A stretch of 51,224 nt of DNA from Bacteroidetes bacterium HGW-Bacteroidetes-13 (GTDB lineage: Bacteria; Bacteroidota; Bacteroidia; Flavobacteriales; Flavobacteriaceae), in NCBI GenBank assembly GCA_002841025.1, contig PHDQ01000001.1, forward strand, positions 1 through 51,224, in the 5' to 3' direction. Positions 17,343 through 50,296 of this stretch are shown here, one piece after another (positions within the stretch are counted from its first letter, which is position 1; each line of letters begins with the position of its first letter). The position numbers and the translations under genes were made by a program. The notes beneath the pieces are model-generated. The model had not been told where the DNA came from and made no database searches. It saw only the letters and a program-made list of their open reading frames with translations.

Positions 17343-17384
17343 AAAAAACTTGAAACTTTAAACATGAAATTTTAAACTAAAAAC
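17343..17384 (+). repeat. Degenerate heptamer array (NNNAAAC)x6 abutting the nuoA start
   Basis: AAAAAAC TTGAAAC TTTAAAC ATGAAAT TTTAAAC TAAAAAC ends 1 nt before the ATG at 17386. TGA/TAA codons fall in all three frames. Confidence 0.7.
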
Positions 17385-17385
17385 A

Positions 17386-17736
17386 ATGGGATCGGAAGCA
17401 ATTATTGTTTTTTTCTTAGCCGGAGTCGTCTTGGTTGCCGGAGCGAATTTTTTATCGAGTCTGATTTCTCACAAATCGGACAATCCGCAAAAACGAGAAC
17501 CTTACGAAAGCGGTATGAAAACCATCGGTCCTACTTGGGTTCAGTTTAAAGTGGGCTATTATTTATTTGCCATCCTATTCCTGATTTTCGATGTGGAAGT
17601 TGCTTTTCTGATTCCTTGGGCAGTCGTTTTCAAGGATGTCGGTTCGGTTGCTTTAATTGAAATCATCATATTTCTCGTCATTTTGGGATTGGGATTGTTA
17701 TACGCATGGAAAAAAGGAGCATTAAAATGGGAATAG
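17386..17736 (+). CDS. nuoA: NADH-quinone oxidoreductase-like complex, subunit A
   Basis: 116 aa with 3 TM segments and the conserved PYESGM and FLIFDVE motifs. Confidence 0.9.
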
Positions 17737-18323
17737 AAAAAACAAGATTTTTGAGCCAGGCCGAAGGAGAGGGAAGGGCTCAGCCGATACCGGACGATTT
17801 TCCAGGAAAAGTAATTCCGGCAGGAAATGGAGCCAACGTGATTGTCACTTCGTTGGACAAAGTCATCAATTGGGGTCGCTCTAATTCGCTTTGGTCGCTC
17901 TATTTCGGCACGAGTTGTTGCGCCATCGAAATGATGCAGACCGGAGCTGCGCGCCACGATTATTCCCGATTTGGGTTTGAAGTTGCCAGACCTTCGCCAA
18001 GACAAGCCGATTTAATCATCATCGCAGGAACGATTGTCAACAAAATGGCACCCGTACTTCGTCGATTGTACGATCAGATGGCCGAACCCAAATACGTCAT
18101 CGCCATGGGTGCGTGTGCCATTTCTGGCGGACCGTTTTTTTACAATTCCTATTCGGTTGTCAAAGGTGCCGACCACGTGATTCCGGTCGATGTTTACGTC
18201 CCGGGTTGTCCGCCACGACCAGAGGCTTTGTTGGAAGGAATGCTGATGCTACAAGATAAAATCCGCACGGAAAACATGAAGCACAAAGAGAATCCGATAG
18301 ATGGATTTGATGAAGGGAAGTGA
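17706..18323 (+). CDS. nuoB: Complex I subunit B (N2 cluster, PSST homologue)
   Basis: Motifs [22 protein letters not shown] and [11 protein letters not shown]. The alternative ATG at 17727 (MGIEK...) overlaps nuoA by 10 nt. Confidence 0.9.
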
Positions 18324-18337
18324 GAAGGAAAGCAATG

Positions 18338-18401
18338 CGCAACCTGCCTGCGACAGGCAGGTAGACAATTAGCAAAAATTAGAAGTCACCGGCAGGTTGC
18401 G
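18338..18401 (+). repeat. GC-rich palindrome plus a competing distal complement in the nuoB-nuoC spacer
   Basis: ACCTGCCTG-cga-CAGGCAGGT forms a hairpin at 18342-18362. CGCAACCTGCC (18338-18348) is also perfectly complementary to GGCAGGTTGCG (18391-18401). Confidence 0.8.
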
Positions 18402-18438
18402 AAAATAGAAACGCAAATAGTTCACAAAAAATAAAGAC

Positions 18439-18900
18439 ATGAACAACGAGGCATTACAAAATTTAATCAGCAGTTGGCATCCGGATTTAACTTTCACGGA
18501 AGAAGGTTCACAGTTTTTGAATATCAGCGTTCAGCCCGAACAACTTCACAACTTGATGAAGCAATTGAAAACCAATTCGGATACCCATTTTGATTATTTG
18601 TTTTGTTTGACCGGCGTAGATTGGGAATCGGCTCTGGGTGTGGTTTATCATTTAGAATCGACAACGCACAGACATGCAGTGGTCGTCAAAGTACAAACGG
18701 AAGACCGGGAAAATCCGACATTCGACACGGTTAGTGACATTTGGGCTACCGCTGAATTTCACGAACGGGAAGTCTTCGATTTTTTTGGTATTAAATTTAA
18801 TAACCACCCCAATTTAAAAAGACTTTTTCTGACCGAAGATTGGGATGGATACCCGCTCAGAAAAGATTATGTAGATGAAATAAATATGGTTGTCAAATAG
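18439..18900 (+). CDS. nuoC: Complex I subunit C (30-kDa homologue)
   Basis: 153 aa. The ATAEFHEREVFDFFGIKF..HP motif is typical of NuoC. Confidence 0.9.
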   Translation: MNNEALQNLISSWHPDLTFTEEGSQFLNISVQPEQLHNLMKQLKTNSDTHFDYLFCLTGVDWESALGVVYHLESTTHRHAVVVKVQTEDRENPTFDTVSDIWATAEFHEREVFDFFGIKFNNHPNLKRLFLTEDWDGYPLRKDYVDEINMVVK

Positions 18901-20028
18901 ATGCAAATGGAAACAATCACTGTCAACAAGAGCTTTAAATCGGAAGAATATTTTATCAATATGGGACCTCAACACCCTGCAACGCATGGCGTTTTGAGGT
19001 TGTTGTTGACGATAGACGGCGAAATCATCAAAAAAGTTGAGCCCGATTTGGGGTACATTCATCGCTCCATCGAAAAAATGTGCGAACGAGACAGTTATCA
19101 GCAAATTGTGCATTTGACAGACCGGATGGATTATTTATCCTCTCATATCAACAACGAAGCAGTTTGTTTGGCGGTTGAAAACGCCTTACAACTCGAAATT
19201 CCGGATCGCGTCAAAGTTATCCGAACCATTATCGGGGAATTGACCCGAATTGCTTCCCACACTTTGTGGTGGGGCGTGATGGGCATGGATGTGGGTGCGT
19301 TGACAACCTATTTCTACGGTTTCAGAGATCGCGAGTTAATCAACGATATTTTTGAGGAAACCTGCGGTGCTCGTCTGACGATGAACTACAACATTCCGGG
19401 CGGATTGATGTTCGATATTCATCCAAATTTTGTGAAAAGAACCAAGGAGTTCATCGCACATTTCAAAACCAAATTACCCGAGTATGACTCGCTGCTGACC
19501 GGAAATATTATCTTCCAAAAACGAATGAAAGGCGTGGGGATATTGTCTAAAGAAGATGCTATTTCATACGGAGCTTCAGGTCCAGTCGGGCGGGGTTCAG
19601 GTTATTCTTGTGATGTTAGAAAACACCATCCTTACAGCGCTTTAGATAAAGTTACTTTCAATGAAACTTTAAGACAGGAAGGCGATTCATTTGCCCGTTA
19701 TCAAGTTCGGATTCAAGAGATGTGGGAATCTATGTCTATCATAGAGCAACTCATCGACAACATACCGGAAGGCGAGCACCAAGTGGCGACCAATGCAGTT
19801 ATCAAATTGCCCAAAGGGGAGTTTTACCAAAAAGTAGAAACTGCACGTGGTGAATTGGGTGTTTACATCATCAGTACGGGAACAAAAAGTCCGTATCGTT
19901 TAAAATTTCGCTCACCCGGATTTTCAAATTTATCCCTGCTCAACCACATAGCCGTGGGAGGAAAAATAGGCGATTTAGTCGCCACCATGGCAACCCTCGA
20001 CCTCGTAATTCCCGATATTGACCGATAA
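18901..20028 (+). CDS. nuoD: Complex I subunit D (49-kDa homologue)
   Basis: 375 aa. MGPQHPATHGVLRL and a C-terminal ...LDLVIPDIDR are typical of NuoD. The ATG immediately follows the nuoC stop. Confidence 0.93.
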   Translation: MQMETITVNKSFKSEEYFINMGPQHPATHGVLRLLLTIDGEIIKKVEPDLGYIHRSIEKMCERDSYQQIVHLTDRMDYLSSHINNEAVCLAVENALQLEIPDRVKVIRTIIGELTRIASHTLWWGVMGMDVGALTTYFYGFRDRELINDIFEETCGARLTMNYNIPGGLMFDIHPNFVKRTKEFIAHFKTKLPEYDSLLTGNIIFQKRMKGVGILSKEDAISYGASGPVGRGSGYSCDVRKHHPYSALDKVTFNETLRQEGDSFARYQVRIQEMWESMSIIEQLIDNIPEGEHQVATNAVIKLPKGEFYQKVETARGELGVYIISTGTKSPYRLKFRSPGFSNLSLLNHIAVGGKIGDLVATMATLDLVIPDIDR

Positions 20029-20038
20029 TTTTACAGCC

Positions 20039-21097
20039 ATGATACGATTTTTCAGCATCACAAAAAATATACACGAATGGCTCTTCAACTTGATGCCCGA
20101 AAGCGTGGCAAGTGTTGTAGAAATGATATTAATAGCGGTCGTGTATTTGCTAATTTTTGCGGTAGCCGGACTTTATTTGGTGTTACTCGAAAGAAGAGTA
20201 GCAGCTTGGTTTCAGTTGCGTATTGGGCCTAACAGAGTGGGTTATCAGGGCTTGTTGCAAACCATGGCTGACGCGCTGAAATTGGTTTCAAAAGAACTTA
20301 CGGGAACTGAAAAAGCAGACAAATTTTTATACAATCTCGCACCGTATTTTGTCATCATATCTTCTTTGATGGCTCTGTCTGTTTTTCCTTTTACACAAGA
20401 TTTTCAGGCTTTTGACATCAATATCGGTCTGCTGTTTTTGATTGCGATTTCATCCATCGGTGTTATCGGAATTTTGTTGGGTGGCTGGAGCAGTAACAAC
20501 AAGTTTGCCTTGATTGGTGCCATGCGCAGCGGCGTGCAAACCATCAGTTATGAACTTTCAGTAGGGCTTTCGTTACTCACCATGGTTTTGTTGACCGGAA
20601 GTTTGCAATTGTCTGAAATCGTAGAAGTTCAAAAAGGTGGCTGGTTGATTGTTCAGGGACACATTCCCGCGGTCATCGCCTTTATGATTTATATGATAGC
20701 CGGAACTGCCGAAACCAATCGCGCACCTTTTGACTTGGTAGAAGCCGAATCGGAATTGGGTGCGGGCTTTCACACCGAATACTCGGGAATGAAATTCGCA
20801 TACTTCTTTTTGGCGGAGTTTATCAACATGTTTATCATCGCGGCGATTGCCACAACCGTATTTTTTGGGGCTTGGCTGTCACCTTTCGGAATCACCGAAT
20901 CTATCCCGATACTGGGTGTGGTTTGGTTTTTGGGAAAAACGCTGATTTTGGTTTTTTTGATGATGTGGTTCAGGTGGACTTTTCCAAGATTGAGAATCGA
21001 TCAACTGTTGACGCTGGAATGGAAATATTTATTGCCAATCAATCTAATTAATATAGTCGTTATGGCATTTGTGGTCTGGCTTAAAATAACCATTTAA
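20039..21097 (+). CDS. nuoH: Complex I subunit H (ND1 homologue)
   Basis: Polytopic membrane protein with ERRVAAWFQLRIGPNRVG and AETNRAPFDLVEAESEL motifs. The ORF-track start at 20018 is a TTG and the first ATG is at 20039. Either way it begins within 11 nt of the nuoD stop, leaving no room for nuoE/F/G. Confidence 0.92.
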   Translation: MIRFFSITKNIHEWLFNLMPESVASVVEMILIAVVYLLIFAVAGLYLVLLERRVAAWFQLRIGPNRVGYQGLLQTMADALKLVSKELTGTEKADKFLYNLAPYFVIISSLMALSVFPFTQDFQAFDINIGLLFLIAISSIGVIGILLGGWSSNNKFALIGAMRSGVQTISYELSVGLSLLTMVLLTGSLQLSEIVEVQKGGWLIVQGHIPAVIAFMIYMIAGTAETNRAPFDLVEAESELGAGFHTEYSGMKFAYFFLAEFINMFIIAAIATTVFFGAWLSPFGITESIPILGVVWFLGKTLILVFLMMWFRWTFPRLRIDQLLTLEWKYLLPINLINIVVMAFVVWLKITI

Positions 21098-21130
21098 AGA
21101 AAATTTCATATAAAGAATATCGATTAAAAA

Positions 21131-21297
21131 ATTATGAATTATGAATTATGAATTATGAATTATGAATTATGAATTATTATGAATTAAACAAATAACAAGC
21201 AACCAGTAACAACCAGCAACCAGCAACCAGCAACCAGTAACCAGTAACCAGTAACCAGTAACCAGTAACAAATAACGAATAACGATTAACAAATAAC
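21131..21297 (+). repeat. Compound heptamer tandem array filling the nuoH-nuoI spacer
   Basis: (ATTATGA)x6 plus partial units span 21131-21187. AAC-phased heptamers follow: AACAAAT AACAAGC AACCAGT (+AAC) (AACCAGC)x3 (AACCAGT)x5 AACAAAT AACGAAT AACGATT AACAAAT, running to 21297. Confidence 0.95.
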
Positions 21298-21328
21298 ATG
21301 GCTTTTTGGAATTTGAAATTATAAAAGT

Positions 21329-21805
21329 ATGAGCTATTTTTCAGACATATACAGCGGAATAAAAACATTGCTAACCGGCATGAGCGTTACCGGAAAATAT
21401 TTTTTGCATGCGAGAAAAGGTGCCATTACCCAACAATATCCGGACAATCGGGCGACTTTGAAAATGTTTGATCGTTTTCGGGGTGAAGTGGTTATGCCGC
21501 ATGACGAAAACAATGAGCACCAATGTACAGGTTGTCAAAAATGCGAACTGGCTTGTCCCAATGGAAGTATTGAGATCATCTGGGACAGGGGAATCGACGA
21601 AACCACCGGAAAAAAGAAGAAAAAAATAGATCAACACATCTACCATTTGGGCATGTGCACCATGTGCGGATTGTGTATAGAAGCCTGCCCGACCGATGCG
21701 ATAGTCTGGGCACAAAATTTTGAAAATTCGGTTTACGACCGAACCAAGCTCACGAAAGTTTTAAACCAACCCGGATCTAAGGTAAAAGCCGGCATAGAAG
21801 ACTAA
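21329..21805 (+). CDS. nuoI: Complex I subunit I (2x[4Fe-4S], TYKY homologue)
   Basis: CTGCQKCELACP and CTMCGLCIEACP motifs, 158 aa. Confidence 0.92.
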   Translation: MSYFSDIYSGIKTLLTGMSVTGKYFLHARKGAITQQYPDNRATLKMFDRFRGEVVMPHDENNEHQCTGCQKCELACPNGSIEIIWDRGIDETTGKKKKKIDQHIYHLGMCTMCGLCIEACPTDAIVWAQNFENSVYDRTKLTKVLNQPGSKVKAGIED

Positions 21806-21809
21806 AACC

Positions 21810-22313
21810 ATGGAAAGAATTATATTTTACACACTGGCGTTGATAATTGTCGTTTTTGCCATTGCCTCAGTCAGCAGCCGGAAAATGCTCCGGTCGGTTA
21901 TTTATTTGCTGTTTGTGCTTTGCGGAATTGCGGGATTTTATTTTTTGATTGATTATAACTTTCTGGCAGCCATTCAACTGACAGTTTACGCGGGCGGCAT
22001 CATCGTATTGTTGATTTTTTCGGTCATGCTGGTTCACCACATCGAAATGGAGTTGGAAGTAGTGAAAAAAGCGAGACAAATTTTGGTAGGGTTGCTATGT
22101 CTCATCGGACTTGGCGTGTTTTTGATTACGATTTATACGCATCCGTTCGTGGTCGTTGAAAACCAAATAACTACCACAACAGCCGATATTGGGTACAAAC
22201 TTTTGAGCTATGATGATGGCGGATTTATTTTGCCATTTGAGGTGATTAGTGTGCTTTTGTTGGCGGCGATGATTGGAGCGATAGTCATCGCAAAAAAAGT
22301 CGGGAGTGAGTAA
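21810..22313 (+). CDS. nuoJ: Complex I subunit J (ND6 homologue)
   Basis: 167-aa polytopic membrane protein in the conserved operon position, with a VYAGGIIVLLIF motif. Confidence 0.88.
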   Translation: MERIIFYTLALIIVVFAIASVSSRKMLRSVIYLLFVLCGIAGFYFLIDYNFLAAIQLTVYAGGIIVLLIFSVMLVHHIEMELEVVKKARQILVGLLCLIGLGVFLITIYTHPFVVVENQITTTTADIGYKLLSYDDGGFILPFEVISVLLLAAMIGAIVIAKKVGSE

Positions 22314-22334
22314 TGCGCAATTGGCAATATACAA

Positions 22335-22418
22335 GAAACTTGAAACTTGAAACTTGAAACTTGAAACTTGAAACTTGAAACTTGAAACCTCCTGCCTGCC
22401 GGCAGGGAAACTTGAAAC
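22335..22418 (+). repeat. (GAAACTT)x7 array interrupted by a 12-bp perfect palindrome, in the nuoJ-nuoK spacer
   Basis: GAAACTT occurs seven times over 22335-22383, followed by GAAACC. Then comes the perfect palindrome CCTGCCGGCAGG (22395-22406), and the repeat resumes as GAAACTTGAAAC (22407-22418). Confidence 0.95.
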
Positions 22419-22439
22419 AAAATAAACAAGATATACCTC

Positions 22440-22757
22440 ATGATTACAGGAATCAGCCTTTACGAAATACTCACCGTTACTTCCATTATTTTCTTTGTGG
22501 GCGTTTACGGCTTCATTACGCGAAAAAATTTGATATCCGTATTGATTTCCATCGAATTGATTCTCAATGCTTCCGCAGTTAATTTTGTGGCTATCAACAA
22601 GTATTTATACCCCGAAGCCTTGCAGGGAGTGGTTTTTTCCATTTTTATCATCGCTGTTGCGGCTGCCGAAACTGCGTTGGCGGTTTCAATCATCATCAAT
22701 CTTTACAGACAAATCAGCTCGGTGGAGGTAAAGGACACCGAAATTATGAAGTATTAA
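22440..22757 (+). CDS. nuoK: Complex I subunit K (ND4L homologue)
   Basis: 105 aa with 3 TM segments and a ...AVAAAETALAVSII motif. Confidence 0.9.
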   Translation: MITGISLYEILTVTSIIFFVGVYGFITRKNLISVLISIELILNASAVNFVAINKYLYPEALQGVVFSIFIIAVAAAETALAVSIIINLYRQISSVEVKDTEIMKY

Positions 22758-22769
22758 CATCTTGAAAAT

Positions 22770-24689: not shown

Positions 24690-24693
24690 AACT

Positions 24694-26184: not shown

Positions 26185-26217
26185 TGATGGTTGTCAATCG
26201 TTAAAAAAAAATGAAGC

Positions 26218-26453
26218 AAGACTCAGCAAACAAGAATAAAGACCCAGGAATCTATACAGTTAGAAACTCGGAGGTTGTTACGATTTCCCGGAAGCGAAAC
26301 CGCCTTTAAGGAAGTCAGAAGCTTGTTGGCTGAGCGTCTGCCTGCCGGCGGGCAGGGAGTCGAAGCCACCATTTGGATAGGCAAACGTATAAATAAAAAT
26401 ACTCAGTACGAAGTTAATTTACGGAAAATCTTGATTCTTGTTTCCTGAGTCTT
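26218..26453. repeat. 236-bp non-coding insert bounded by 20-bp inverted repeats (MITE-like) in the nuoM-nuoN spacer
   Basis: AAGACTCAGCAAACAAGAAT (26218-26237) compared with the reverse complement of ATTCTTGTTTCCTGAGTCTT (26434-26453) gives 19/20 matches. The interior carries a GC palindrome and GAGTCGAAG/CTGAGCG modules. Confidence 0.6.
26329..26367 (+). repeat. Modular GC-rich element: GCTGAGCG + palindrome + GAGTCGAAGCC
   Basis: GCTGAGCG spans 26329-26336. TCTGCCTGCCGGCGGGCAGG (26337-26356) is a self-complementary stem with one G.T pair. GAGTCGAAGCC spans 26357-26367. Confidence 0.85.
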
Positions 26454-26499
26454 GATTTCTTTAAAAGATAACATTTTATTAAAACACAAACACAAAACC

Positions 26500-27939
26500 A
26501 TGACCCTCAATAGTTTTTCATTCATGCGACACGAAATTTTGCTTTTAGCAATCATCATGCTGTTGCTGATAGCTGAGATTTTCATTTCTAAAAACAAGAA
26601 AAACAGCATCGTTCATTTGGCGGTATTGTTGTTTGGAATGCATACAGTTGTTGGCATTTTCTCGATGGGCGAGGGGAGCCTGTTCGGTGGCATGTTTTAC
26701 ACGAACAACCTGATTCATTTCTTTAAAAATGTACTCAACATCGGTGTATTTATTCTATTGTTGCAATCAGCCGATTGGCTACAGGAAAAAATCGTCTCCC
26801 AAAACAGAGGAACTGAGTTTTTCTTATTGCTTTTTTCTTCCCTGTTAGGCATGTATTTTATGATATCATCCGGCGATTTTTTGATGTTCTACATCGGGTT
26901 GGAATTGTCAACTTTGCCGGTAGCAGCTTTGGCAGCTTATGAAACATCCAAACGAATATCGAGTGAAGCGGGCATCAAATTTATTCTTTCTGCCGGACTT
27001 GCTTCCGGGACTGCTTTGTTTGGTATCACCTTGTTCTATGCAACTTCCGGATCTATTTACTTCGACGACATCAGCCTACTAATTGCTTCCAACAACCTGA
27101 CCATTTTGGCATTTATTCTCTTTTTTACGGGTTTGGCATTCAAAATATCATTGGTTCCTTTTCATTTCTGGACTGCAGATGTTTATGAAGGTGCGCCCAT
27201 CAGCGTGGCTTCTTATCTGTCGGTCATTTCCAAAGGAGCGGCGGTATTTATTTTGATGATATTGCTCTTTACCGTACTCAAACCGCTGATGCATATTTGG
27301 GAAAACGTATTGTATTTGATTGCGCTTGCCACCATGTTTACGGGTAATTTATTTGCGCTGCGTCAACAAAACATGAAGCGATTTTTGGCTTTTTCATCCA
27401 TTGCACAAGCGGGTTTTATATTGTTGGGTTTGGTCACAGGAACGCAATTAGGGACAGCCACAGTAGTCTATTTCGTGATGATTTATATCTTTTCTAACTT
27501 GGCCGCTTTCGGTGTGGTGCAAGCGATTTCCTTAAAAACCGGTAAAGAAAACATGAATGATTATGAAGGTCTCTACCGAACCAACCCCAATTTGAGTTTG
27601 GTGATGATGTTGGCTTTGTTTTCATTGGCGGGTATTCCACCGGTAGCCGGATTTTTCGGTAAGTTTTTCCTGTTTACCGCTGCTGCGAGCAAGGGTTATT
27701 ATCTCTTGGTTTTTTTGGCAGTTGTCAACGTTACGATTTCACTTTATTACTATCTTTTGGTAATCAGAGCCATGTTTCTCCGAACCAATGACAATGCCAT
27801 TCCGTTTTTTAAAAATAAAATCTATATGCGATTGGGTTTGATTATCACAGTTTTGGGAATACTGACACTTGGATTATACAGCCCATTGTATGACTATATC
27901 TATGAATTGAGTAGTAGCTTGTGTGGTTGTACTTTATGA
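26500..27939 (+). CDS. nuoN: Complex I subunit N (ND2 homologue, antiporter-like)
   Basis: Polytopic protein with VPFHFWTADVYEGAPISVASYLSVISKGA. The ORF-track start at 26452 is a TTG inside the repeat element. The first ATG (MTLNSFSF...) is at 26500. Confidence 0.9.
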   Translation: MTLNSFSFMRHEILLLAIIMLLLIAEIFISKNKKNSIVHLAVLLFGMHTVVGIFSMGEGSLFGGMFYTNNLIHFFKNVLNIGVFILLLQSADWLQEKIVSQNRGTEFFLLLFSSLLGMYFMISSGDFLMFYIGLELSTLPVAALAAYETSKRISSEAGIKFILSAGLASGTALFGITLFYATSGSIYFDDISLLIASNNLTILAFILFFTGLAFKISLVPFHFWTADVYEGAPISVASYLSVISKGAAVFILMILLFTVLKPLMHIWENVLYLIALATMFTGNLFALRQQNMKRFLAFSSIAQAGFILLGLVTGTQLGTATVVYFVMIYIFSNLAAFGVVQAISLKTGKENMNDYEGLYRTNPNLSLVMMLALFSLAGIPPVAGFFGKFFLFTAAASKGYYLLVFLAVVNVTISLYYYLLVIRAMFLRTNDNAIPFFKNKIYMRLGLIITVLGILTLGLYSPLYDYIYELSSSLCGCTL

Positions 27940-27996
27940 GTTATGAATTATGAATTATGAGTTTTAAGTTATTTGTCATTTGAAATTTTAAAAATT
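27934..27996 (+). repeat. Nine-unit heptamer array spanning the gap from the nuoN stop to the next start
   Basis: The units are TTATGAG TTATGAA TTATGAA TTATGAG TTTTAAG TTATTTG TCATTTG AAATTTT AAAAATT. The nuoN TGA (27937-27939) lies in unit 1 and the next ATG (27997) follows unit 9. Confidence 0.9.
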
Positions 27997-28320
27997 ATGT
28001 CATTAGAAGGAAAACATTCATTTGGTAGCATCGGGGAAACTCGGGTGACCTTTGTAGAGAAAAACACAGATGAAACTCGGAAGAATTTCCTTGAAAAACT
28101 GCTGATACACAACGGATTTGAGGTAATCATCGATGAAATAGAAAAAAAATCGGAGGAAGACCCGCAACTTTACACGGTCGCCGTAACCGACATGGTTTTT
28201 AATCCCACAATTTGGGTTTATGAACGCAAACTCAAAACCTTTGACGGACACAAAGTAACCCCGGCTTATTGGGAACAAAAAACGGAAGACACCAACCCGA
28301 TGTATTGGAAGAATTCATAG
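27997..28320 (+). CDS. Hypothetical soluble protein at the tail of the nuo operon
   Basis: 107 aa counted from the first ATG (the ORF-track TTG at 27973 lies inside the heptamer array). It has acidic, soluble composition and I recognise no motif. Confidence 0.55.
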   Translation: MSLEGKHSFGSIGETRVTFVEKNTDETRKNFLEKLLIHNGFEVIIDEIEKKSEEDPQLYTVAVTDMVFNPTIWVYERKLKTFDGHKVTPAYWEQKTEDTNPMYWKNS

Positions 28321-39963: not shown

Positions 39964-40012
39964 CAAGTCCTGATTCCTGATTCTTAAGTCTTAAGTCTTG
40001 CCCCTGGATTCC
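39964..40012. repeat. Heptamer-periodic array abutting the DUF885 stop codon
   Basis: CAAGTCC TGATTCC TGATTCT TAAGTCT TAAGTCT TGCCCCT GGATTCC. The gene's stop (TTA on the plus strand, 40016-40018) follows 3 nt later. Confidence 0.8.
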
Positions 40013-40015
40013 GGC

Positions 40016-41827: not shown

Positions 41828-42045
41828 CAGATAATATTCACGGATTCATCAGAAGTTTTATCAGTATTTACTTTCGCCGTATTTTTACCACAAAGGCAAA
41901 AATCTCACAGAGTTATAAAACTTCACTACAACGAAATTAAGAAAAATAATTATTGTTATCCGTTACATTTTACAACATCTTAGTTATTTTCAAGACAAAA
42001 AAATTATAAACGGATTTTTAATCACTTCTTATTGCGATTATTATT

Positions 42046-42164
42046 TGGCCAAAGCCTTTTGGGGTTGTTGCAGCAGTCATCCCGCTGAAGCGGGATGCAA
42101 TTAATGAATTGGGGTTGGCTTTAGCCAACCTAAATATGTTTGTGAATGTCTTGGCTTTAGCCAA
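42046..42164. repeat. Cluster of small GC-rich hairpin words
   Basis: CATCCCGC-tgaa-GCGGGATG lies at 42078-42097. GGTTGGC-ttta-GCCAACC lies at 42113-42130. TTGGC-ttta-GCCAA lies at 42151-42164. The related TTGGCCAAAGCC starts near 42045. Confidence 0.8.
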
Positions 42165-42320
42165 AATAGATTGCTTTACCGTCAATATTTCATCCTTGAG
42201 GAAAAAGAAGCCCGTTTTATTATAAATACATCATTATCACTTGATATTGAATGGATTAAAATATTAGGCTTAATTTTTATCGGGCACAAATGAAAATAAA
42301 AGAGGTAAACAACCCGTTCC

Positions 42321-42383: not shown

Positions 42384-42412
42384 CGCCTATTTTGAAATTT
42401 GGAATTTAAAAA

Positions 42413-42948: not shown

Positions 42949-42965
42949 CTGCTTGCCGCAGGCAG
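42949..42965. repeat. GC-rich palindrome of the CTGCCTGCC-GGCAGGCAG family
   Basis: CTGCTTGCCGCAGGCAG is self-complementary apart from one G.T pair. Confidence 0.75.
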
Positions 42966-42985
42966 TTAGACAATTGGCAATGGAC

Positions 42986-43020
42986 AAACCTGAAACCTGA
43001 AACCTGAAACCAGAAATATG
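42986..43020 (+). repeat. (AAACCTG)x3 heptamer array running into the start codon of the 43018 gene
   Basis: AAACCTG AAACCTG AAACCTG AAACCAG AAATATG. The final ATG (43018-43020) is the start codon. Confidence 0.9.
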
Positions 43021-43911
43021 AAAACATGGATTTTTTTAGCAGTTTTGACAAGTACAATTCTTGTTGGCTGCCAAGACAAAAACAAAAAAGCGCAAAAAAT
43101 CGAACCGACAGAAACGGCATCGACGGTTGTGCCGGATTCTTGGATAAAAAACAGGGTTGAAAAAACGAAAACGCGTTTGCAGCAAACCGATGCCGGAAAG
43201 GTGGTTTGGGATGCCATGGAAGCCCACGGCGGACTCGAAAAATATTACAGCAACGGCTATTTGTCTTTCCACTTCAACTACCAACCGCTGGGAGAAGGAA
43301 CTCCGCGAAACACCTATCAAATCGTGGACACCTGGAGCAACAAAGCCCGACAAAAAGAGGCAAAAGACACCACTTTACAATACGGCTGGAATGGCGAAAC
43401 CGCTTGGAAATTGGTTAAAGACAGCACTTCCATTCCGTATGACACCCGCTTTTGGGCTCTGACACCTTATTATTTTTCTGCCATCCCTTTTGTTTTGGAC
43501 GGAAGCGGCGTGAATTTGGCGTTGTTGCCGCAAACTACCTACAAAGAGCGATTGAATGACGTCGTGAAAGTGACTTTTGCAGCAGGCACCGGCGACGCAC
43601 CGGACGATTATTACATACTTTATTTTGATGCGGCATCCCACAAACTAACCGTCATACGCTACATTGTTTCGTACCCGGCCTATTTCCCGAAAGGCAAGCA
43701 CATGCCCGAGAAATTTATGGATGTCATCGGCGAACAGGTGGTTGACGGAATCACCTTCCCCAAAAGCTACAAAACCTATTGGCTGACTGCCGATAATTTG
43801 CCCAGCGAATACATCACCGCCATCGAATTGAGCGAAGTTTCCTTCAAAAAAGATGTGAAGAAAACGTATTTTGATCCACCGAAAGGTGCGGTTATTGTGG
43901 ATGGATTGTAG
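43018..43911 (+). CDS. Hypothetical lipoprotein
   Basis: 297 aa with lipobox ILVGC|QDK. It is a distant paralogue of the 44510 protein, sharing the ..HGG..Y...F.F.. and ..V(K/E)VTF..G..D.. blocks. Confidence 0.7.
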   Translation: MKTWIFLAVLTSTILVGCQDKNKKAQKIEPTETASTVVPDSWIKNRVEKTKTRLQQTDAGKVVWDAMEAHGGLEKYYSNGYLSFHFNYQPLGEGTPRNTYQIVDTWSNKARQKEAKDTTLQYGWNGETAWKLVKDSTSIPYDTRFWALTPYYFSAIPFVLDGSGVNLALLPQTTYKERLNDVVKVTFAAGTGDAPDDYYILYFDAASHKLTVIRYIVSYPAYFPKGKHMPEKFMDVIGEQVVDGITFPKSYKTYWLTADNLPSEYITAIELSEVSFKKDVKKTYFDPPKGAVIVDGL

Positions 43912-44058
43912 AATTATTGATTGGTATTGGTTTAATTGTTGGCAACAATGGTAAGTTCTATCACTACGAAATACCACAGAGAGACTTGAAAACGAATCTA
44001 TCACGAGCCTAAATGATTGACAGTAAATATTGTTTAAATTTGGAGCAAACTAAAAAAT

Positions 44059-44388
44059 ATGGAAAGGCGTTTTTCTGACATTATTCAACTAATAAAACAA
44101 TCTCGGACTAATGCACTAAAAACCGTTAATGCTGAACTGATTAATCTTTATTGGAATACGGGAGAGTTTATTAGCAAGAAACTTGAGCTTGCCGAATGGG
44201 GTGATTCCGTGGTTACAGAATTAGCAAAATACATCCAAAAAAACGAGCCAGACATAAAAGGTTTTTCTGACAAAAACCTATGGAGAATGAAGCAATTTTA
44301 TGAGTCATACAAAGACTTTCCAAAACTCTCAACATTGTTGAGAGAAATTAGCTGGTCTCACAATTTGGCTATTTTTTCAAGATGTTAG
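44059..44388 (+). pseudogene. N-terminal stub of a DUF1016 (YhcG-type PDDEXK nuclease) gene
   Basis: The 109 aa ..NAELINLYWNTGEFISKK...GFSDKNLWRMKQFYESY...ISWSHNLAIF match the N-terminal helical domain of ~340-aa DUF1016 proteins. The nuclease domain is absent, and only 121 nt remain before the next gene. Confidence 0.7.
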
Positions 44389-44509
44389 CAGTTAGCTTTT
44401 GACCTTTTTAAAGAATAATTTCACATCCAATTCATAAATAGACTAACGGCTAAAAGCCAACAGTCAAAAGCCATTAAAACAACAGTAAACCCAATTATTA
44501 GAATCAAAA

Positions 44510-45259
44510 ATGAAAAAAATCTTGCTATCCTTATTGATACTGACAAGCTTTGTTGCTTGCAAAGAGAAACCCCAACCATTGACCGTTCAGCAAATTGTCG
44601 ATCAAGCCATTGAAAAAGCGGGTGGCAACTTGTATGAAAAGGCTCACATCGAATTTGATTTCAGGAAAATTCATTACCTCTCCACGCGTCAGGGAAGTAA
44701 ATATTCCTACGAACGGGTGCAAACAGATTCAACCGGAAGAAAAATTCACGATGTATTGACCAACAAGGGTTTTGAACGATTTATAAACGATTCGTTGGTG
44801 CAAGTAGTCGATTCGATGGCTAACAAGTATGCCAATTCGGTCAATTCAGTTCATTATTTTGCCTATCTCCCGTACGGACTCAATGACAAAGCAGTTCACA
44901 AAAAATTGTTGGGTGAAAAAACCATCAAAGGGAAAACGTACTATCAAATTGAAGTGACTTTCTCCGAAGAAAACGGCGGAGACGACCACAGCGATGTATT
45001 TCTGTATTGGATAAACAAGGAAACTTTTTTGGTGGATTATTTAGCCTATCTCTACCACACGGATGAAGGCGGAATCCGTTTCAGGGAAGCCTTTAATCCA
45101 AGAGCTGTAAACGGCATTAGATTAGTCGATTATAAAAATTATAAACCCTTTTCGGAAGACATTGATTTCTATCAAATCGGTGAACTTTTCGATGCGGGAA
45201 AATTGGAATTGTTATCTGAAATCGTGAATGAAAATGTGACGGTTAAGATCGTTGAGTAG
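44510..45259 (+). CDS. Hypothetical lipoprotein
   Basis: 249 aa with lipobox SFVAC|KEK. Confidence 0.7.
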   Translation: MKKILLSLLILTSFVACKEKPQPLTVQQIVDQAIEKAGGNLYEKAHIEFDFRKIHYLSTRQGSKYSYERVQTDSTGRKIHDVLTNKGFERFINDSLVQVVDSMANKYANSVNSVHYFAYLPYGLNDKAVHKKLLGEKTIKGKTYYQIEVTFSEENGGDDHSDVFLYWINKETFLVDYLAYLYHTDEGGIRFREAFNPRAVNGIRLVDYKNYKPFSEDIDFYQIGELFDAGKLELLSEIVNENVTVKIVE

Positions 45260-45284
45260 TTATAGATTATTTTAAGAAAGCAAC

Positions 45285-45737
45285 ATGTCCCCATTAAAAC
45301 CACAACGCAGTCCTGTATTGGAAATTTACACTGCCAACACGCAGACTGAACTCGAATTGCCGCTGCTTCCGTTTGCAATAAGTGCAGGTTTTCCCTCACC
45401 GGCATTGGATTTTATCGACTTAGGAATTGATTTAAACAAGCATCTCATTGAGCACCCGTCGGCTACTTTTTACGGACGCGTACAAGGTGAATCTATGCGC
45501 GATGCCGGTATAAATGATGGGGACCTTTTGATAATTGACAAAAGTATTGAACCTGCGGACGGTAAAATTGCCGTTTGCTATCTTGACGGAGAGTTTACGC
45601 TAAAACGCATAAGGCTAAGCAAACAAGGATTGTGGCTTATGCCTGAAAACGAAGGGTATCAGCCCATAAAAATAGAAGCGCACAATGATCTAAAAATTTG
45701 GGGAGTTGTTACCTTTATCGTCAAGAAACCACGGTGA
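45285..45737 (+). CDS. umuD: UmuD-like S24 autopeptidase (Pol V accessory subunit)
   Basis: 150 aa with the Ala-Gly cleavage context [11 protein letters not shown], catalytic Ser in GESM and Lys in FTLKRI. There is no DNA-binding domain. Confidence 0.88.
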
Positions 45738-46996
45738 TGTTTGCCTTAATTGACTGCAATAATTTTTATGCTTCCTGCGAGCGGGTTTTTCGTCCGGATC
45801 TTGTTGGAAAACCCGTTGTGGTGCTTTCCAACAACGACGGCTGTGTAATAGCGCGAAGTAGCGAAGCGAAAGCCATTGGCATTCCGATGGGTGCGGCAGC
45901 GTTTGAATATGAGAAAATGTTTAAACAAAACAACGTGCATGTTTTTTCCGCAAACTTCGCTTTGTATGGCGATATGAGCCAACGGGTAATGGATATTTTG
46001 AGCGGTTACAGCCCCGAAATAGAAATTTACAGCATTGATGAAGCGTTTTTGAAACTAAAAGGTTTTGAAAAATTTGACCTGCAAAAATACGGTGCCGAAA
46101 TGCGCTATAAGGTACAAAAATGGACGGGGATTCCCATCAGCGTTGGCATTGCGCCCACCAAAGCATTGGCAAAAGTTGCCAATAAAATTGCAAAAAAATA
46201 CCCGAAAGAGTTGCAAAATGTGTACATCATTGACACAGAAGAAAAGAGAGCAAAAGCCCTGAAATGGTTGAAAATAGAAGATGTTTGGGGCATTGGCAGA
46301 CAACACAGCAAACGCCTGAAAGCGATAAATGTAAACACGGCTTACGATTTCACACAACTGGACGATGCGTGGGTAAAAACACATTTGGCAATCGTTGGTT
46401 TGCGGTTAAAACACGATTTGTCAGGTATCCCGACACTGGATTTGGAAGAGGTGCAACCGAAGAAAAATATTTCAACCGCACGCTCATTTGAAAACAATTA
46501 TACCGAATTGGAGCAATTGCGGGAACGGATTGTAACTTTTGCCGTTTCCTGTGCCGAAAAATTGCGCAAACAAAATTCTTGCTGCAATTCTTTAAGGGTA
46601 TTTATCCATACCAACGAACACCGAAAAGATTTACCGCAATACAGCCGAAACATGGTAATAAAATTGCCATTCCCAACCAATTCAAGTATGGAGTTGGCAA
46701 CATTTGCAAATTTGGCATTACAAAAGATATTCAGAGAAGGCTATCACTACAAAAAAGCCGGTGTAATCGTGCAAGATTTTACGCCCGAAAACACGCAACA
46801 ACTGAAACTATTTGAAAGCAGAAATGAAAAACACATTCCGCTCATGCAGGTGGTGGATAAGCTAAACAAAAGTTACGGTCAGCAAAAAATACGACTGGCC
46901 GGACAAGACATAAAACGAATTTGGAAAATGAAACAAGAAAAATTATCGCCTCGCTACACAACCAAATTATCCGACATCATAACCATTCACTGTTAA
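45737..46996 (+). CDS. umuC: Y-family DNA polymerase V catalytic subunit UmuC
   Basis: [41 protein letters not shown] is the canonical UmuC N-terminus. Its ATG overlaps the umuD TGA (TGATG). The ORF-track start at 45698 adds 13 unlikely residues. Confidence 0.92.
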
Positions 46997-46997
46997 T

Positions 46998-47060
46998 ATG
47001 TGTTTTCATTCAAAACAATCTAAATCGGCACAAGCATTGAAGCATCGTTTCAAAGTCTAA
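46998..47060 (+). pseudogene. 20-codon stub of an SOS-response-associated peptidase (SRAP/YedK-like) gene
   Basis: ATG TGT TTT CAT... encodes MCFHSKQSKSAQALKHRFKV*. It starts 1 nt after the umuC stop. The Met-Cys start and the ..A..L..RF pattern match SRAP N-termini. The reading frame ends inside a 9-bp hairpin. Confidence 0.5.
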
Positions 47061-47076
47061 TCCCTGCGGGATTAGA
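47056..47076. other. 9-bp perfect hairpin between the SRAP stub and the aminotransferase gene
   Basis: TCTAATCCC-tgc-GGGATTAGA. It may act as a bidirectional terminator for the convergent umuC and aminotransferase transcripts. Confidence 0.5.
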
Positions 47077-47149
47077 ATTGACCTAAATGACTGGGGCGCG
47101 CTTAATTCGCATATAATAATCTTGAAACAAATAGGCGTTTAAAATCTGC

Positions 47150-48334
47150 TTAGGAAACTGCTTCCTTGATTCTTTTTAAGGCTTCTGTCAATTCTTCGGT
47201 AGAAGCTGCGTAAGAAATTCGGATACAATCCTTGCTACCAAAAGCATCGCCGGTTACGGTTGCCACATTGGCTTCTTCCAACAAATACATGGAAAAATCG
47301 TCAGAATTGTTAATTTTTTTTCCTCTGAGGGTTTTGCCAAAGAATGAAGACACATCCGGAAACACGTAAAATGCACCTTCCGGTACGTTGGTTTTGATAC
47401 CGGGAATTTCGTTGAGCAAACCCAAAACCAAATCTCTTCGGACTTTAAATGCATCCACCATATATTTGACACTGCTCACAGGGGCGAGAAGTGCCGCGAT
47501 GGTTGCGCGCTGCGCGATGCTATTGGCTCCTGAAGTGATTTGACCTTGTATTTTATTACAGGCATCGGCAATCCATTGTGGCGCACCGATGTATCCGATT
47601 CTCCAACCGGTCATGGCAAATGCTTTTGACACGCCGTTGACGGTAATGGTGCGTTCGTACATGCCCGGAATGGTGGCTATACTTGCATGACCTCCCACAA
47701 AGTTGATGTGTTCGTAAATCTCATCAGAAACCACAAAAAGATTGGGGTGTTTCAAAATGACTGCTGCCAGTCCTTCAAGTTCCGCCCGGCTGTAAACAGA
47801 GCCTGTCGGATTGCATGGCGAACTGAAAATAATCAGTTTGGTTTTGTCGGTAATCGCTGCTTCCAATTGCTGTGGTGTGATTTTGAAATCGGAATCTATA
47901 CTGGTAGGAACTTCAACCGGTTCTCCATCGGCTATTTTAACCAAGTCGCTGTAACTCACCCAATACGGTGCAGGTAAAATTACTTCGTCACCGGGATTCA
48001 ACATGACCAAAGTGATGTTTGCCAAAGATTGTTTGGCTCCTGTTGAAACCACAATTTGATTGGGTTTGTAATCTAAAGTATTGTCTCTTTTAAATTTTAA
48101 AGAAATGGCTTCGCGCAAATCTTGGTAACCGTTGACTGGCGAGTAAGAGCTGTAGTTTTGGTGAATTCCTTCGATGGCGGCTTCTTTGATAAAATCCGGT
48201 ACATTGAAGTCGGGTTCGCCCAAACTCAATCCGATGATGTCTTTTCCGGCAGCTTTAAGTTCACGCGTTTTTGCGGCCATTGCCAAAGTTGCAGACGTAG
48301 CCAATTTGTTGATGCGATCTGATAACAAATTCAT
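47150..48334 (-). CDS. Class I PLP-dependent aminotransferase (aspartate aminotransferase-like)
   Basis: 394 aa with the PLP-lysine context VNGVSKAFAMTGWRIGY and the SSPCNPTG motif. Confidence 0.9.
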   Translation of the reverse strand: MNLLSDRINKLATSATLAMAAKTRELKAAGKDIIGLSLGEPDFNVPDFIKEAAIEGIHQNYSSYSPVNGYQDLREAISLKFKRDNTLDYKPNQIVVSTGAKQSLANITLVMLNPGDEVILPAPYWVSYSDLVKIADGEPVEVPTSIDSDFKITPQQLEAAITDKTKLIIFSSPCNPTGSVYSRAELEGLAAVILKHPNLFVVSDEIYEHINFVGGHASIATIPGMYERTITVNGVSKAFAMTGWRIGYIGAPQWIADACNKIQGQITSGANSIAQRATIAALLAPVSSVKYMVDAFKVRRDLVLGLLNEIPGIKTNVPEGAFYVFPDVSSFFGKTLRGKKINNSDDFSMYLLEEANVATVTGDAFGSKDCIRISYAASTEELTEALKRIKEAVS

Positions 48335-48379
48335 AACAGTATAGGTAGTTTGGATAGTGAAATGTTTAAAACAAAAAGA

Positions 48380-49483
48380 TTAAGCAGGATTAAATTCGGG
48401 TTTTTTACCCAATTCTTTGAGTTGTTGAAAGTGAGAAATCAACGCGGCTCGGGTGGTTTTAAATTCCTTGTAAGGTAGGTTAAATTCTGTGGCTGTTTTC
48501 TTTACGATAGCCGAAATTTTGGTGTAATGAACATGGCTGATGTTTGGGAAAATATGATGCTCAACTTGGTGGTTGAGTCCACCGGTAAACCAATTGACAA
48601 ATCTGTTTTTAGTACCGAAATTGGTCGTTGTAAAAAGCTGGTGAATTGCCCATACATTTTTAATCTGACCATCATTCGGTGGCAATTGGGTTTCCACATC
48701 ATCCGAAACGTGAGCCAACTGAAAAACCACACTCAATATGAGACCGGCGGTGTAGTGCATAGCAAAAAATCCGATGAGAACCTTCCACCAAGCAATATCT
48801 GAAACCAATAGCGGGATGATTATCCAAACCGAGACGTAGATAATTTTGGTGATGACCAAAACACTCCATTCTCTGGTGGGATTCAGTTTGTTGTCAGCAG
48901 ACAATCCCCGCTTGATGTATCTTTTCATCTGTGAAAAATCTGACGTAATGGCCCAATTGATGGTCAACAAACCATATAGAAAGATGGAATAGTAGTGTTG
49001 AAAACGATGAAAACGATGCCATTTTGCATGTTTGGAAAACCGAAGAATTCTTCCTGCATCCAAGTCTTCATCGTGTCCGTGTATATTGGTGTAGGTATGG
49101 TGTAACACATTGTGCTGTACTTTCCAATTATAGACATTTCCTGAAAGAATATAGATGCTTCCACCCATAAAGTTGTTGATCCATTTTTTGGAAGAATACG
49201 TACCGTGGTTGCCGTCGTGCATCACATTCATTCCGACACCAGCCATTCCGACGCCGATAATTATAGAGAAAAGCAAGAACCACCAACCCGGAATATTTAG
49301 CGTAAGAATCAAAAAATAGGGAGTTAAAAAAATAGAAAACATGATGATCGTTTTCAAATGCAATTTCCAGTTACCGGTTTTCTTAAGGTTATTGTTTTTA
49401 AAATAATCGTTGACTCTGTTGTTGAGCGTTTTGAAAAAATCAGTTTCGTCTTTGCGTTGAAATCTTAAAAGGGTGTTAGACAT
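48380..49483 (-). CDS. Membrane fatty-acid desaturase family protein
   Basis: Three His boxes (HDGNHG, HNVLHH, HQVEHH) and 4 TM segments, 367 aa. Confidence 0.88.
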   Translation of the reverse strand: MSNTLLRFQRKDETDFFKTLNNRVNDYFKNNNLKKTGNWKLHLKTIIMFSIFLTPYFLILTLNIPGWWFLLFSIIIGVGMAGVGMNVMHDGNHGTYSSKKWINNFMGGSIYILSGNVYNWKVQHNVLHHTYTNIHGHDEDLDAGRILRFSKHAKWHRFHRFQHYYSIFLYGLLTINWAITSDFSQMKRYIKRGLSADNKLNPTREWSVLVITKIIYVSVWIIIPLLVSDIAWWKVLIGFFAMHYTAGLILSVVFQLAHVSDDVETQLPPNDGQIKNVWAIHQLFTTTNFGTKNRFVNWFTGGLNHQVEHHIFPNISHVHYTKISAIVKKTATEFNLPYKEFKTTRAALISHFQQLKELGKKPEFNPA

Positions 49484-49546
49484 AATTATTTTTTTATGTG
49501 GAATAATATATTTTGAACCTATAACAGGTCAGTTTTTAGATTTTCA

Positions 49547-49554
49547 CAAAAGTA
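49547..49554 (-). promoter_or_regulatory. Candidate -7 box for the desaturase/aminotransferase unit
   Basis: Plus-strand CAAAAGTA equals minus-strand TACTTTTG, about 64 nt upstream of the start at 49483. Confidence 0.3.
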
Positions 49555-49610
49555 AATATTTATAAGCAGAGTCAAAGACCAAGATTGATAAATTTAACTT
49601 ATTTAAAACG

Positions 49611-49618
49611 TATTTTTG
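49611..49618 (+). promoter_or_regulatory. Candidate -7 box (TATTTTTG) for rsmG
   Basis: It lies 17 nt upstream of the ATG at 49635. A TTG at 49585-49587 could serve as a -33 element. Confidence 0.4.
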
Positions 49619-49634
49619 TGATAAAATTGTTCAG

Positions 49635-50264
49635 ATGCAACTTATACACAAATATTTTAAAAACTTAACAGACGAACAGATTCGTCAATTCTCCGAACTT
49701 GAAAAATGCTATTTGGATTGGAATCAAAAAATCAATGTCATCTCTCGAAAAGACGTTGAACACTTGTATGAAAGGCATGTTTTACACGCTTTAAGCATCG
49801 CCAAAGTGATTGAATTTCTTCCGCAATCCAAAATTTTGGATGTCGGAACGGGCGGCGGATTTCCCGGAATTCCTTTGGCTATTTTGTTCCCCGATGTTCA
49901 GTTTCACCTGATTGATGCCATCGGTAAAAAAATTGTTGTTGTGCAAGCAATTTCGGATGCATTAAAACTGAAAAACGTCAAAGCCGAACACATTCGTGCC
50001 GACCAGGTGAAAAGTCAATACGATTTTATCGTCAGCCGAGCGGTGACCAACATGCCTGATTTTGTAAAATGGGTGAAGGGAAAAGTCCTCAAAACCAACC
50101 GACACGCTTTGGAAAACGGGATTTTATATTTGAAAGGTGGCGACCTGACTGAGGAATTAAAAATTTATCAAAAAGTAACTTGCTTCGAAATCAGCGACTT
50201 TTTTGAAGAAACCTTTTTCGAATCCAAAAAAGTGGTGTATTTGCCGGTGAAATATAAAGCTTAG
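49635..50264 (+). CDS. rsmG: 16S rRNA (guanine527-N7)-methyltransferase RsmG
   Basis: 209 aa with WNQKINVISRKD...ERHVLHAL and the SAM motif LDVGTGGGFPGIPLAI. Confidence 0.93.
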   Translation: MQLIHKYFKNLTDEQIRQFSELEKCYLDWNQKINVISRKDVEHLYERHVLHALSIAKVIEFLPQSKILDVGTGGGFPGIPLAILFPDVQFHLIDAIGKKIVVVQAISDALKLKNVKAEHIRADQVKSQYDFIVSRAVTNMPDFVKWVKGKVLKTNRHALENGILYLKGGDLTEELKIYQKVTCFEISDFFEETFFESKKVVYLPVKYKA

Positions 50265-50296
50265 AGCATAGAGTATTAAGTATTTAGTATTAAGAT
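50262..50296 (+). repeat. Heptamer-periodic stop-rich array starting at the rsmG stop codon
   Basis: TAGAGCA TAGAGTA TTAAGTA TTTAGTA TTAAGAT. The first TAG is the rsmG stop. Confidence 0.8.

Follow-up and report, generated by a model that had tools for sequence, protein, structure and literature searches.

Heptanucleotide arrays in and around a nuo operon

The stretch of DNA analysed here, hereafter the window, comprises 51,224 nucleotides of Bacteroidetes bacterium HGW-Bacteroidetes-13 and is contig C98 of a 2.54-Mb genome (G000; 358 contigs, 40% G+C, 82% complete). The contig carries nuoA–N, and Pfam delineates a co-directional nuo operon with nuoA (starting at 17386), nuoH, nuoI, nuoJ, nuoK, nuoL and nuoN, which extends up to 27939. 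NuoD is 98% identical to that of a metagenome-assembled genome (MAG) labelled 'Flavobacteriaceae bacterium' (locus L001, a sister species whose Nuo proteins are 98–100% identical to those of the window), and all 80 best loci belong to Flavobacteriales; by these protein comparisons the source organism is an uncultured member of the Flavobacteriaceae. Short tandem arrays of 7-nt units lie between genes of the window, flanking nuo genes, a DUF885 gene and other housekeeping open reading frames (ORFs). Their growth, distribution and possible origin are the subject of this work.

Arrays were called with Tandem Repeats Finder (TRF) and by direct reading; all positions are on the forward strand. A preliminary description had listed eight junctions with period-7 repeats, and TRF called seven of them, with three arrays 98–100% perfect. 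Upstream of nuoA, a degenerate (AAACTTG)x4.7 array (17346–17378, 73% matches) ends 7 nt before the start codon. The nuoH–nuoI spacer holds a perfect (AATTATG)x6.9 array (21130–21177), followed by a compound, AAC-phased array (21187–21298) which reads as (AACCAGC)3(AACCAGT)5 and then AACAAAT/AACGAAT/AACGATT, and which terminates on a non-genic ATG at 21298. TRF resolves parts of this compound array as (AACCAGT)x8.4 (21211–21269, 98%) and (TAACAAA)x4.7 (21266–21298). In the nuoJ–nuoK spacer, a perfect (GAAACTT)x7.7 array (22335–22388) is broken by an 18-nt GC-rich palindrome, CTCCTGCCTGCCGGCAGG (22389–22406), after which the array resumes as GAAACTTGAAAC, up to 22418, with a 2-nt shift of register. 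GAAAC stands on both sides of the palindrome and may represent a 5-bp target duplication.

Nine heptamers (27934–27996; four TTATGAR units, then degenerate ones) lead from the stop codon of nuoN to the ATG of a 107-amino-acid ORF. The nuoN TGA (27937–27939) lies inside the first unit and the ATG at 27997 follows the ninth; TRF reports TTATGAG x5.6 at 27934–27972. Outside the operon, (TCCTGAT)x2.3 and (TCTTAAG)x2.6 lie between convergent genes (39968–39999), (AAACCTG)x4.4 (42986–43016) ends 1 nt upstream of an ATG at 43018, and (AGTATTA)x3.3 (50272–50294) belongs to a tract that begins on the TAG stop (50262) of the ORF at 49635–50264. The preliminary description was thus right that arrays abut stop and start codons, and also that every unit in the window except AACCAGC carries a stop codon on the sense strand. 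At the eighth site (26431–26458), described earlier as weak copies, TRF makes no call; the copies are nonetheless part of a real repeat, namely the right arm of the 34-nt inverted repeat treated below. An Rfam search of the window gave no match to an RNA family.

Upstream of the AAACCTG array lie degenerate NNGRCAA heptamers and a GC palindrome. The sequence CAATTGGCAAT, considered as a separate motif beside two of the window arrays, resolved into these degenerate heptamers. The 107-amino-acid ORF (27997–28320) has no Pfam match; of the 80 related loci, most keep it straight after nuoN, at a median distance of 6 nt.

The enrichment extends to the whole genome. There are 26 perfect arrays of period 7 with three or more copies, against 0.2 expected from Markov-3 simulations of matched composition, whereas periods 5, 6 and 9–12 occur at expectation. 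With imperfect arrays included, TRF returns 118 rows with period 7 and at least three copies, and copy numbers in the window range from 2.3 to 8.4. After merging, 70 of the 72 arrays are intergenic although intergenic DNA makes up only 12% of the genome (88% coding, with gene calls that are an ORF-based approximation); repeats of periods 6 and 9 are mostly coding. The restriction to non-coding spacers follows from the 7-nt step, which breaks reading frames. What had been called a genome-wide style consists of separate arrays, with no periodicity pervading the rest, because the lag-7 autocorrelation of intergenic DNA vanishes once the called arrays are masked. Since arrays concentrate at contig ends (12/72 within 200 nt, p = 7e-4), their number in this genome is a lower bound.

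At least 42 distinct unit sequences make up the period-7 class. Period 8 likewise exceeds expectation (13 perfect arrays against 0), and every period-8 array belongs to a single unit family, AATCATCA / TGATGATT, of up to 22 copies. Arrays show no preference for start codons, 14 being nearer a start and 21 nearer a stop, with a median distance to the start of 43 nt. As RNA, their folding energy per nucleotide is indistinguishable from that of shuffles of themselves and only marginally weaker than that of random intergenic DNA (p = 0.048); the idea that they serve as unstructured leaders was dropped. In samples of relatives, the density of period-7 arrays per Mb is 23.7, 30.0, 66.3 and 22.7 in four congeners (G001–G004, G001 being the sister species), compared with 30.7 in G000. 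It reaches 70 in G021, from another family, and 25 in G022, a closed 3.07-Mb genome from a further family, and is 0 in 200 kb of G009. The arrays are thus patchily distributed within the order.

Growth and turnover between strains and species

Over 57–80 Flavobacteriaceae loci, the median nuo spacers are 4 nt (H–I), −4 nt (J–K), 10 nt (B–C), 20 nt (M–N) and 6 nt (from nuoN to the next ORF). Against these ancestrally tight junctions, the array-bearing spacers measure 57–315 nt; the window, L001, L002 and, in part, L010 are alone in having expanded nuo spacers. Arrays have widened these junctions, an expansion that is evidently tolerated, perhaps because the group does not rely on Shine–Dalgarno sites.

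Strains were compared between assemblies (including Logan assemblies and one ENA assembly), with contigs L213–L216 compared via an identical NuoK. The independent ENA assembly (L213, 99.96% identical) has the same GAAACTT array between nuoJ and nuoK and the same array between nuoN and the following ORF as the window, and its contig breaks 64 nt past the nuoH–nuoI array. Contigs L214 and L215 (96.7–98.3% identical) have the nuoH–nuoI flanks in common with the window. Where the window has approximately seven and nine copies, they hold ATTAAGA and AACCAGT once each, and the single AACCAGT sits in an already degenerate AACNANT tract. The nuoH–nuoI arrays have thus expanded in place from a proto-repeat.

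The GAAACTT array is absent from L214–L216 and from L001, where nuoJ encodes 179 amino acids instead of the 167 of the window. At this point the 3′ end of the window's nuoJ (21810–22313), together with the nuoJ–nuoK spacer, is replaced relative to those four loci, the alignment stopping at 22307 and restarting at 22407. L001 also lacks the nuoH–nuoI arrays despite its near-identical Nuo proteins. Upstream of nuoA it carries (GAAGTCA)x21.7 and (AACCAGA)x9.4 in place of the AAACTTG array, and its post-nuoN spacer is two TTATGAR units shorter.

Outside the operon, period-7 tracts are kept at orthologous junctions of G001 and G004 with other units and other copy numbers. At the 39964 junction both species hold approximately three units of the family of the TCCTGAT/TCTTAAG array; at 42986, G001 has (GAAACCA)x5, into which a palindrome is inserted, and G004 a shorter variant. 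Copy number, and even the dominant unit, thus change between strains that are 97–98% identical, whereas different species retain a period-7 tract at the same junction. The process behind this is the duplication of a local 7-nt word in an intergenic spacer, followed by growth and shrinkage by whole units. The earlier proposal of slippage-prone, length-variable spacers agrees with what was found, namely enrichment over composition-matched sequence, a strand orientation bias (below) and copy-number differences between the window and L214/L215, L001 and G001/G004.

PF05635 cassettes and their heptamer arms

A family of small genes, PF05635 (the '23S rRNA intervening-sequence protein', S23p, Avd-like), is linked to the same repeats. 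G000 has ten PF05635 genes and all ten are bracketed by inverted arms of 7- or 8-nt tandem units; the inverted-flank score places 9 of the 10 in the top 2.7% of 1,824 control genes. These cassettes lie in spacers between protein-coding genes, not in a 23S rRNA helix. For the eight that were called as ORFs, all called neighbours are co-oriented with the cassette gene, and most of the cassettes sit directly between a stop codon and the next start codon. In the sister species G001, 8/8 inspected PF05635 cassettes are of the same build.

The arms are made of the unit types of the window. Those of G001 comprise GAAACCT/GTTTCAG, AATTAYG/CGTAATT, CTGGTTG, AACGATT/AACAAAT, AGTATTA and GAAGTCA. GAAACCT/GTTTCAG, of the same type as the GAAACTT array at 22335, forms the arms of cassette L233; AATTATG, the unit at 21130, recurs as an arm in L234; and AGTATTA/TAATACT, the unit at 50272, forms the arms of cassette C274 in G000 and L239 in G001. 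Altogether, the unit classes of 18 of 37 orphan arrays (arrays outside cassettes) match arm classes, compared with 19% of random intergenic heptamers. In the window, the figure is 5/8.

Cassettes are also present in nuo operons. Ten PF05635 ORFs (six confirmed by Pfam) were found in the C–D, D–H, J–K, K–L, L–M and M–N junctions of other Flavobacteriaceae (nine loci), all on the operon strand and most with short inverted heptamer arms. Three nuoK–nuoL cassettes in loci labelled Maribacter or Bacteroidetes (L044:13512–13967, L076:13795–14241 and L039:10850–11299) are related and have near-identical right flanks (TAGGCAATCTAGRCA...), a similarity which points to inheritance or else to one site having been targeted more than once.

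One site was found in three states. G001 carries a full 578-nt cassette there (L233). In G004 the site holds two GTTTCAG units abutting the start codon of the neighbouring gene, together with a 67-nt gene fragment, and in G000, G002 and G003 it is an empty spacer of 11–14 nt holding the seed CTTGAAAC.

Within the window, the nuoM–nuoN spacer contains an inverted repeat of 34 nt whose arms are 85% complementary and enclose a 186-nt loop without a gene. The left arm (26209–26242) is of the AAGACTC AGCAAAC AAGAATA type and the right arm (26429–26462) reads TCTTGAT TCTTGTT TCCTGAG TCTTGAT. The predicted RNA fold of this shell has an energy of −83.9 kcal/mol (z = −5.2). Its arms belong to the same family as those of the PF05635 cassette on contig C245 of G000, and locus L002 has them around a loop of approximately 25 nt. 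Judged by its arms, the insert is the only recognisable gene-less cassette shell in the window, which thus holds one such shell and seven orphan arrays with cassette-arm unit types.

Period-8 sites in G000 include C327:5243–5422, C252:39–211, C177:4054–4197, C299:20083–20165 and C32:1298–1358. The arrays on C32 and C299 are arms of PF05635 cassettes, and several period-8 arrays have a common flank, GATTAAACCGAACAA.

Origin of the arrays, related systems and other repeats

The preliminary description proposed that the arrays act as frame-independent translation insulators or restart spacers, one stop codon per 7-nt unit closing all three frames in a host without Shine–Dalgarno sites. The stop-per-unit pattern is real in this genus. 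Among G000 arrays of unambiguous sense strand, 44 of 59 units contain a sense-strand stop, against 29.0 expected from unit composition and 42% of random intergenic heptamers. Antisense stops are at expectation, and units with sense-only stops outnumber those with antisense-only stops by 24:6, so the predicted orientation bias is present. The arrays are also A-rich on the sense strand (A>T in 36:21 in G000, 26:13 in the sample of other genera and, more weakly, 13:9 in congeners), and they are weakly structured as RNA. When the repeat islands (below) and the window are removed, the stop excess persists (19/33 against 12.6, P = 0.0025) and the strand asymmetry, at 10:5, is no longer significant. 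In the four congeners the trend is marginal (20/28 against 15.5, P = 0.03), and other genera show no excess (20/43 against 18.5). The pattern rests on a few related families (AACNANT with its T|AA junction, and YYTGA) whose units are not independent draws, which makes it poor evidence for a designed insulator. The case is weakened further by the long arrays upstream of nuoA in the sister species, which contain no sense stop at all. The same operon works with 4-nt or overlapping junctions in most Flavobacteriaceae, near-identical strains have gained and lost arrays, and the arrays show no preference for closeness to start codons. We consider selected insulators very unlikely, and the data neither require nor support a role of the arrays as translation insulators. 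The A-rich sense strand and its frequent stops would instead reflect a filter of what a transcribed leader tolerates, together with the common ancestry of a few unit families.

We think it probable that the arrays are heptanucleotide simple sequence repeats (SSRs) which grow in place, share one repeat system with the PF05635 cassette arms and have no sequence-specific function; the absence of such a function is, in itself, the most likely state of affairs. In this genus the arrays would be part of the system that builds the inverted cassette arms, and probably at least some of the orphan arrays derive from cassettes, either as remnants or as offshoots; the one decaying cassette documented in G004 illustrates this. 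Several observations weigh against this link, and most of them would be expected if the arrays were plain microsatellites, produced by polymerase slippage in 7-nt steps and unrelated to PF05635, with cassettes merely occupying or recruiting slippage-prone sequence. There are far more orphan arrays than cassettes. A search within 900 nt yielded no inverted partner for any of the seven TRF-called arrays of the window; genome-wide, only 9/72 arrays have one, compared with 2.7% of controls. No PF05635 remnant was detected in the window spacers (best E = 0.2). Two empty sites in G000 hold no array, so that the loss or absence of a cassette does not always leave one behind. Array density does not visibly correlate with the number of PF05635 genes across eight sampled genomes: G021 has 5 genes and 70 arrays per Mb, G022 has 1 and 25 per Mb, and G009 has 5 and no array in 200 kb. 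To these must be added the stop excess that outlasts removal of the islands and the window, which may betray some selection for stops. Expansion from local proto-repeats likewise suits plain slippage, a hypothesis put forward for such repeats by Mrazek 2007, as cited in PMC4692102. Yet slippage by itself leaves unexplained why period 7 should be preferred to periods 5, 6, 9 and 10, why every PF05635 gene of G000 and every one inspected in the sister species has inverted heptamer or octamer arms, and why arms and orphan arrays have unit classes in common 2.5 times above chance. At the three-state site, moreover, arrays come with a cassette at an otherwise empty position, and the decaying cassette leaves a two-unit array by the start codon. 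We regard an origin by slippage unrelated to PF05635 as doubtful.

The link could be causal. An intervening-sequence-like selfish cassette, with PF05635 between inverted heptamer arms, might make and spread the arrays by inserting precisely between stop and start codons of genes transcribed together; the orphan arrays of the nuo operon would then be its gene-less derivatives or footprints, and the 7-nt step would stem from the cassette's mechanism, for example an RNase III-processed stem or Avd-like binding. We put this forward as a tentative possibility, drawn from comparisons of loci, which if true would explain the over-representation of heptanucleotides in many prokaryotes. It is quite improbable that the arrays are binding platforms which regulate flanking genes through a single-strand nucleic-acid-binding protein (a cold-shock protein, an S1-like protein or PF05635 itself) taking 7 nt per monomer. 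By analogy, CspB takes one heptamer per protein (PMC4679880), PF05635 is related to Avd, the nucleic-acid-binding protein of diversity-generating retroelements (PMC10053308), and the step is constant across many unit sequences with an A>T bias on the transcribed strand. Nevertheless, at least 42 unrelated units ill suit a sequence-specific binder, the arrays lack conservation between strains, and TAACTGA, the unit for which such binding has been proposed, is never tandem in this genome. That a fragmented MAG produced the arrays as an artefact of assembly or binning might be suspected from the 358 contigs, the 82% completeness and the enrichment of arrays near contig ends. Since the independent ENA assembly has the same nuoJ–nuoK and nuoN–ORF arrays, and related arrays occur in Logan assemblies, in four congeners, in the closed genome of G022 and in the isolate genomes of PMC4679880, we consider an artefact extremely improbable.

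Reports of heptanucleotide repeats go back to 2007, and further in cyanobacteria, and to our knowledge no cause or function has gained acceptance. The earlier remark that no function has been described holds in this sense, although the repeat class itself was already in the literature; what is new is the lineage. In heterocystous cyanobacteria, Mazel is said to have described in 1990 several heptanucleotide families (short tandemly repeated repetitive sequences, STRRs) that are tandem and intergenic, including within operons. Both those and the present arrays are intergenic tandem heptamers; the phylum differs, and none of our array units is known to be an STRR1–3 unit. Heptanucleotide repeats of Calothrix are mentioned in PMC4692102. 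Both PMC4692102 and PMC4679880 cite Mrazek, Guo and Shah (PNAS 2007) for the finding that heptanucleotide repeats are the most abundant long-unit SSRs in most prokaryotic genomes. The arrays described here have the features of that class (LSSR 5–11) as it appears in those citing papers: head-to-tail 7-nt units of many sequences, over-representation, confinement to non-coding DNA and length polymorphism by whole units. They differ from it, as so cited, in belonging to an uncultured Flavobacteriaceae genus, in an expansion caught between 97–98% identical assemblies, and in units tied to PF05635 arms.

Within the Flavobacteriaceae, long arrays of TAACTGA and other heptamers occur in Gramella forsetii and Aequorivita sublithincola, whose close relatives have shorter, repeat-free spacers (PMC4679880), and Elizabethkingia contigs end in heptamer repeats (MacGregor 2015, PMC4679880). 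Our arrays come from the same bacterial family and, like these, are side-by-side intergenic heptamers that are absent from close relatives and break contigs. For Beggiatoaceae arrays that lie just upstream of start codons, MacGregor suggested a role in translation, and she proposed the binding of cold-shock or S1-like proteins to TAACTGA repeats (PMC4679880). The window genome differs in that its arrays have no preference for such sites. Membership of the TAACTGA family was considered and rejected, as the genome holds 213 single occurrences and no tandem pair.

Two further systems bear comparison. In Coxiella burnetii, the 23S rRNA intervening sequence (IVS) has two to three GACAGAT repeats, varying by strain, upstream of an S23p ORF, with RNase III cutting at the first (PMC4990558). 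Like the G000 and G001 cassettes, it consists of a small PF05635 ORF between terminal inverted repeats; unlike it, our cassettes are lodged between protein-coding genes of operons, with whole heptamer or octamer arrays as arms. In Haemophilus influenzae, the (ATCTTTC)n repeat in the 5′ untranslated region of hmw1A is transcribed and forms a hairpin cleaved by RNase III, and both hairpin and RNase III are needed for changes in repeat number (PMC12721329). That repeat controls a phase-variable adhesin of a host-adapted pathogen, whereas housekeeping genes flank the arrays here and most arrays lack a complementary partner. Contingency repeats for phase variation were rejected on the same ground, as the arrays flank nuo, DUF885 and housekeeping ORFs and not surface or virulence genes. 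G-quadruplex GGGNATC repeats (Rehm 2015) were also rejected, the units being A/T-rich and none containing GGG.

In the window, an essential operon offers a clean case of repeats that have grown from one copy to several between near-identical strains. A single site, seen with a cassette present, decayed and absent, ties the units to PF05635 cassettes in operon junctions and yields a concrete hypothesis for the origin of heptamers. In practical terms, such arrays break short-read assemblies and inflate operon spacers, and annotators should expect them.

Other repeats accompany the arrays. A shared mobile element carrying them was considered and rejected, since most array flanks are unique and common flanks occur only among repeat-island contigs (C116, C164, C300, C317, C318 and C350). 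These islands, often at contig ends, are composed of higher-order modules of approximately 115 nt with heptamer sub-arrays (ATAACNA, CCTAATG/GCTAATG) and octamer arrays; the sites are C318:1–2300, C300, C164:6900–7300, C116:33600–33810, C350:9170–9340 and C317:20400–20560, and those on C318 flank an epimerase-like gene. A dispersed conserved element of at least approximately 70 nt (AGAACGCTACAATTTCAAGCTTCTCGATACCTGCCTGTGGCAGACAGGCAATTTTTAATAGTAAAGCTGTCGC) has approximately 45 sites in the genome, often at contig ends (for example, C26:5005–5077, C29:2040–2110 and C137:18494–18566), and none in the window. The segment at 41935–42203 of the window (approximately 270 nt) is absent from the orthologous locus of G001 and is approximately 80% identical to more than ten other loci of G001 and G004; it is probably a dispersed element resembling a miniature inverted-repeat transposable element.

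Small palindromic elements, termed small dispersed repeats (SDR), are reportedly inserted in tandem heptamer arrays of Nostoc punctiforme, as Elhai et al. are said to have described in 2008 in a paper that PMC3116915 cites. The 18-nt palindrome at 22389–22406 likewise lies within a heptamer array, and is unrelated to them in sequence and phylum. It belongs to a family of GC-rich palindromes with the core CTGCC-N1-4-GGCAG, which numbers approximately 35 copies apart from the AGAACGCTACAATTTCAAGCTTCTCGATACCTGCCTGTGGCAGACAGGCAATTTTTAATAGTAAAGCTGTCGC element. Members recur inside or at the edge of heptamer arrays, in the window at 22389–22406, 26338–26358, 18338–18401 and 42950–42968, and elsewhere in G000 inside the arrays at C85:7346, C134:6405 and C292:3798; a further copy lies at C334:624.

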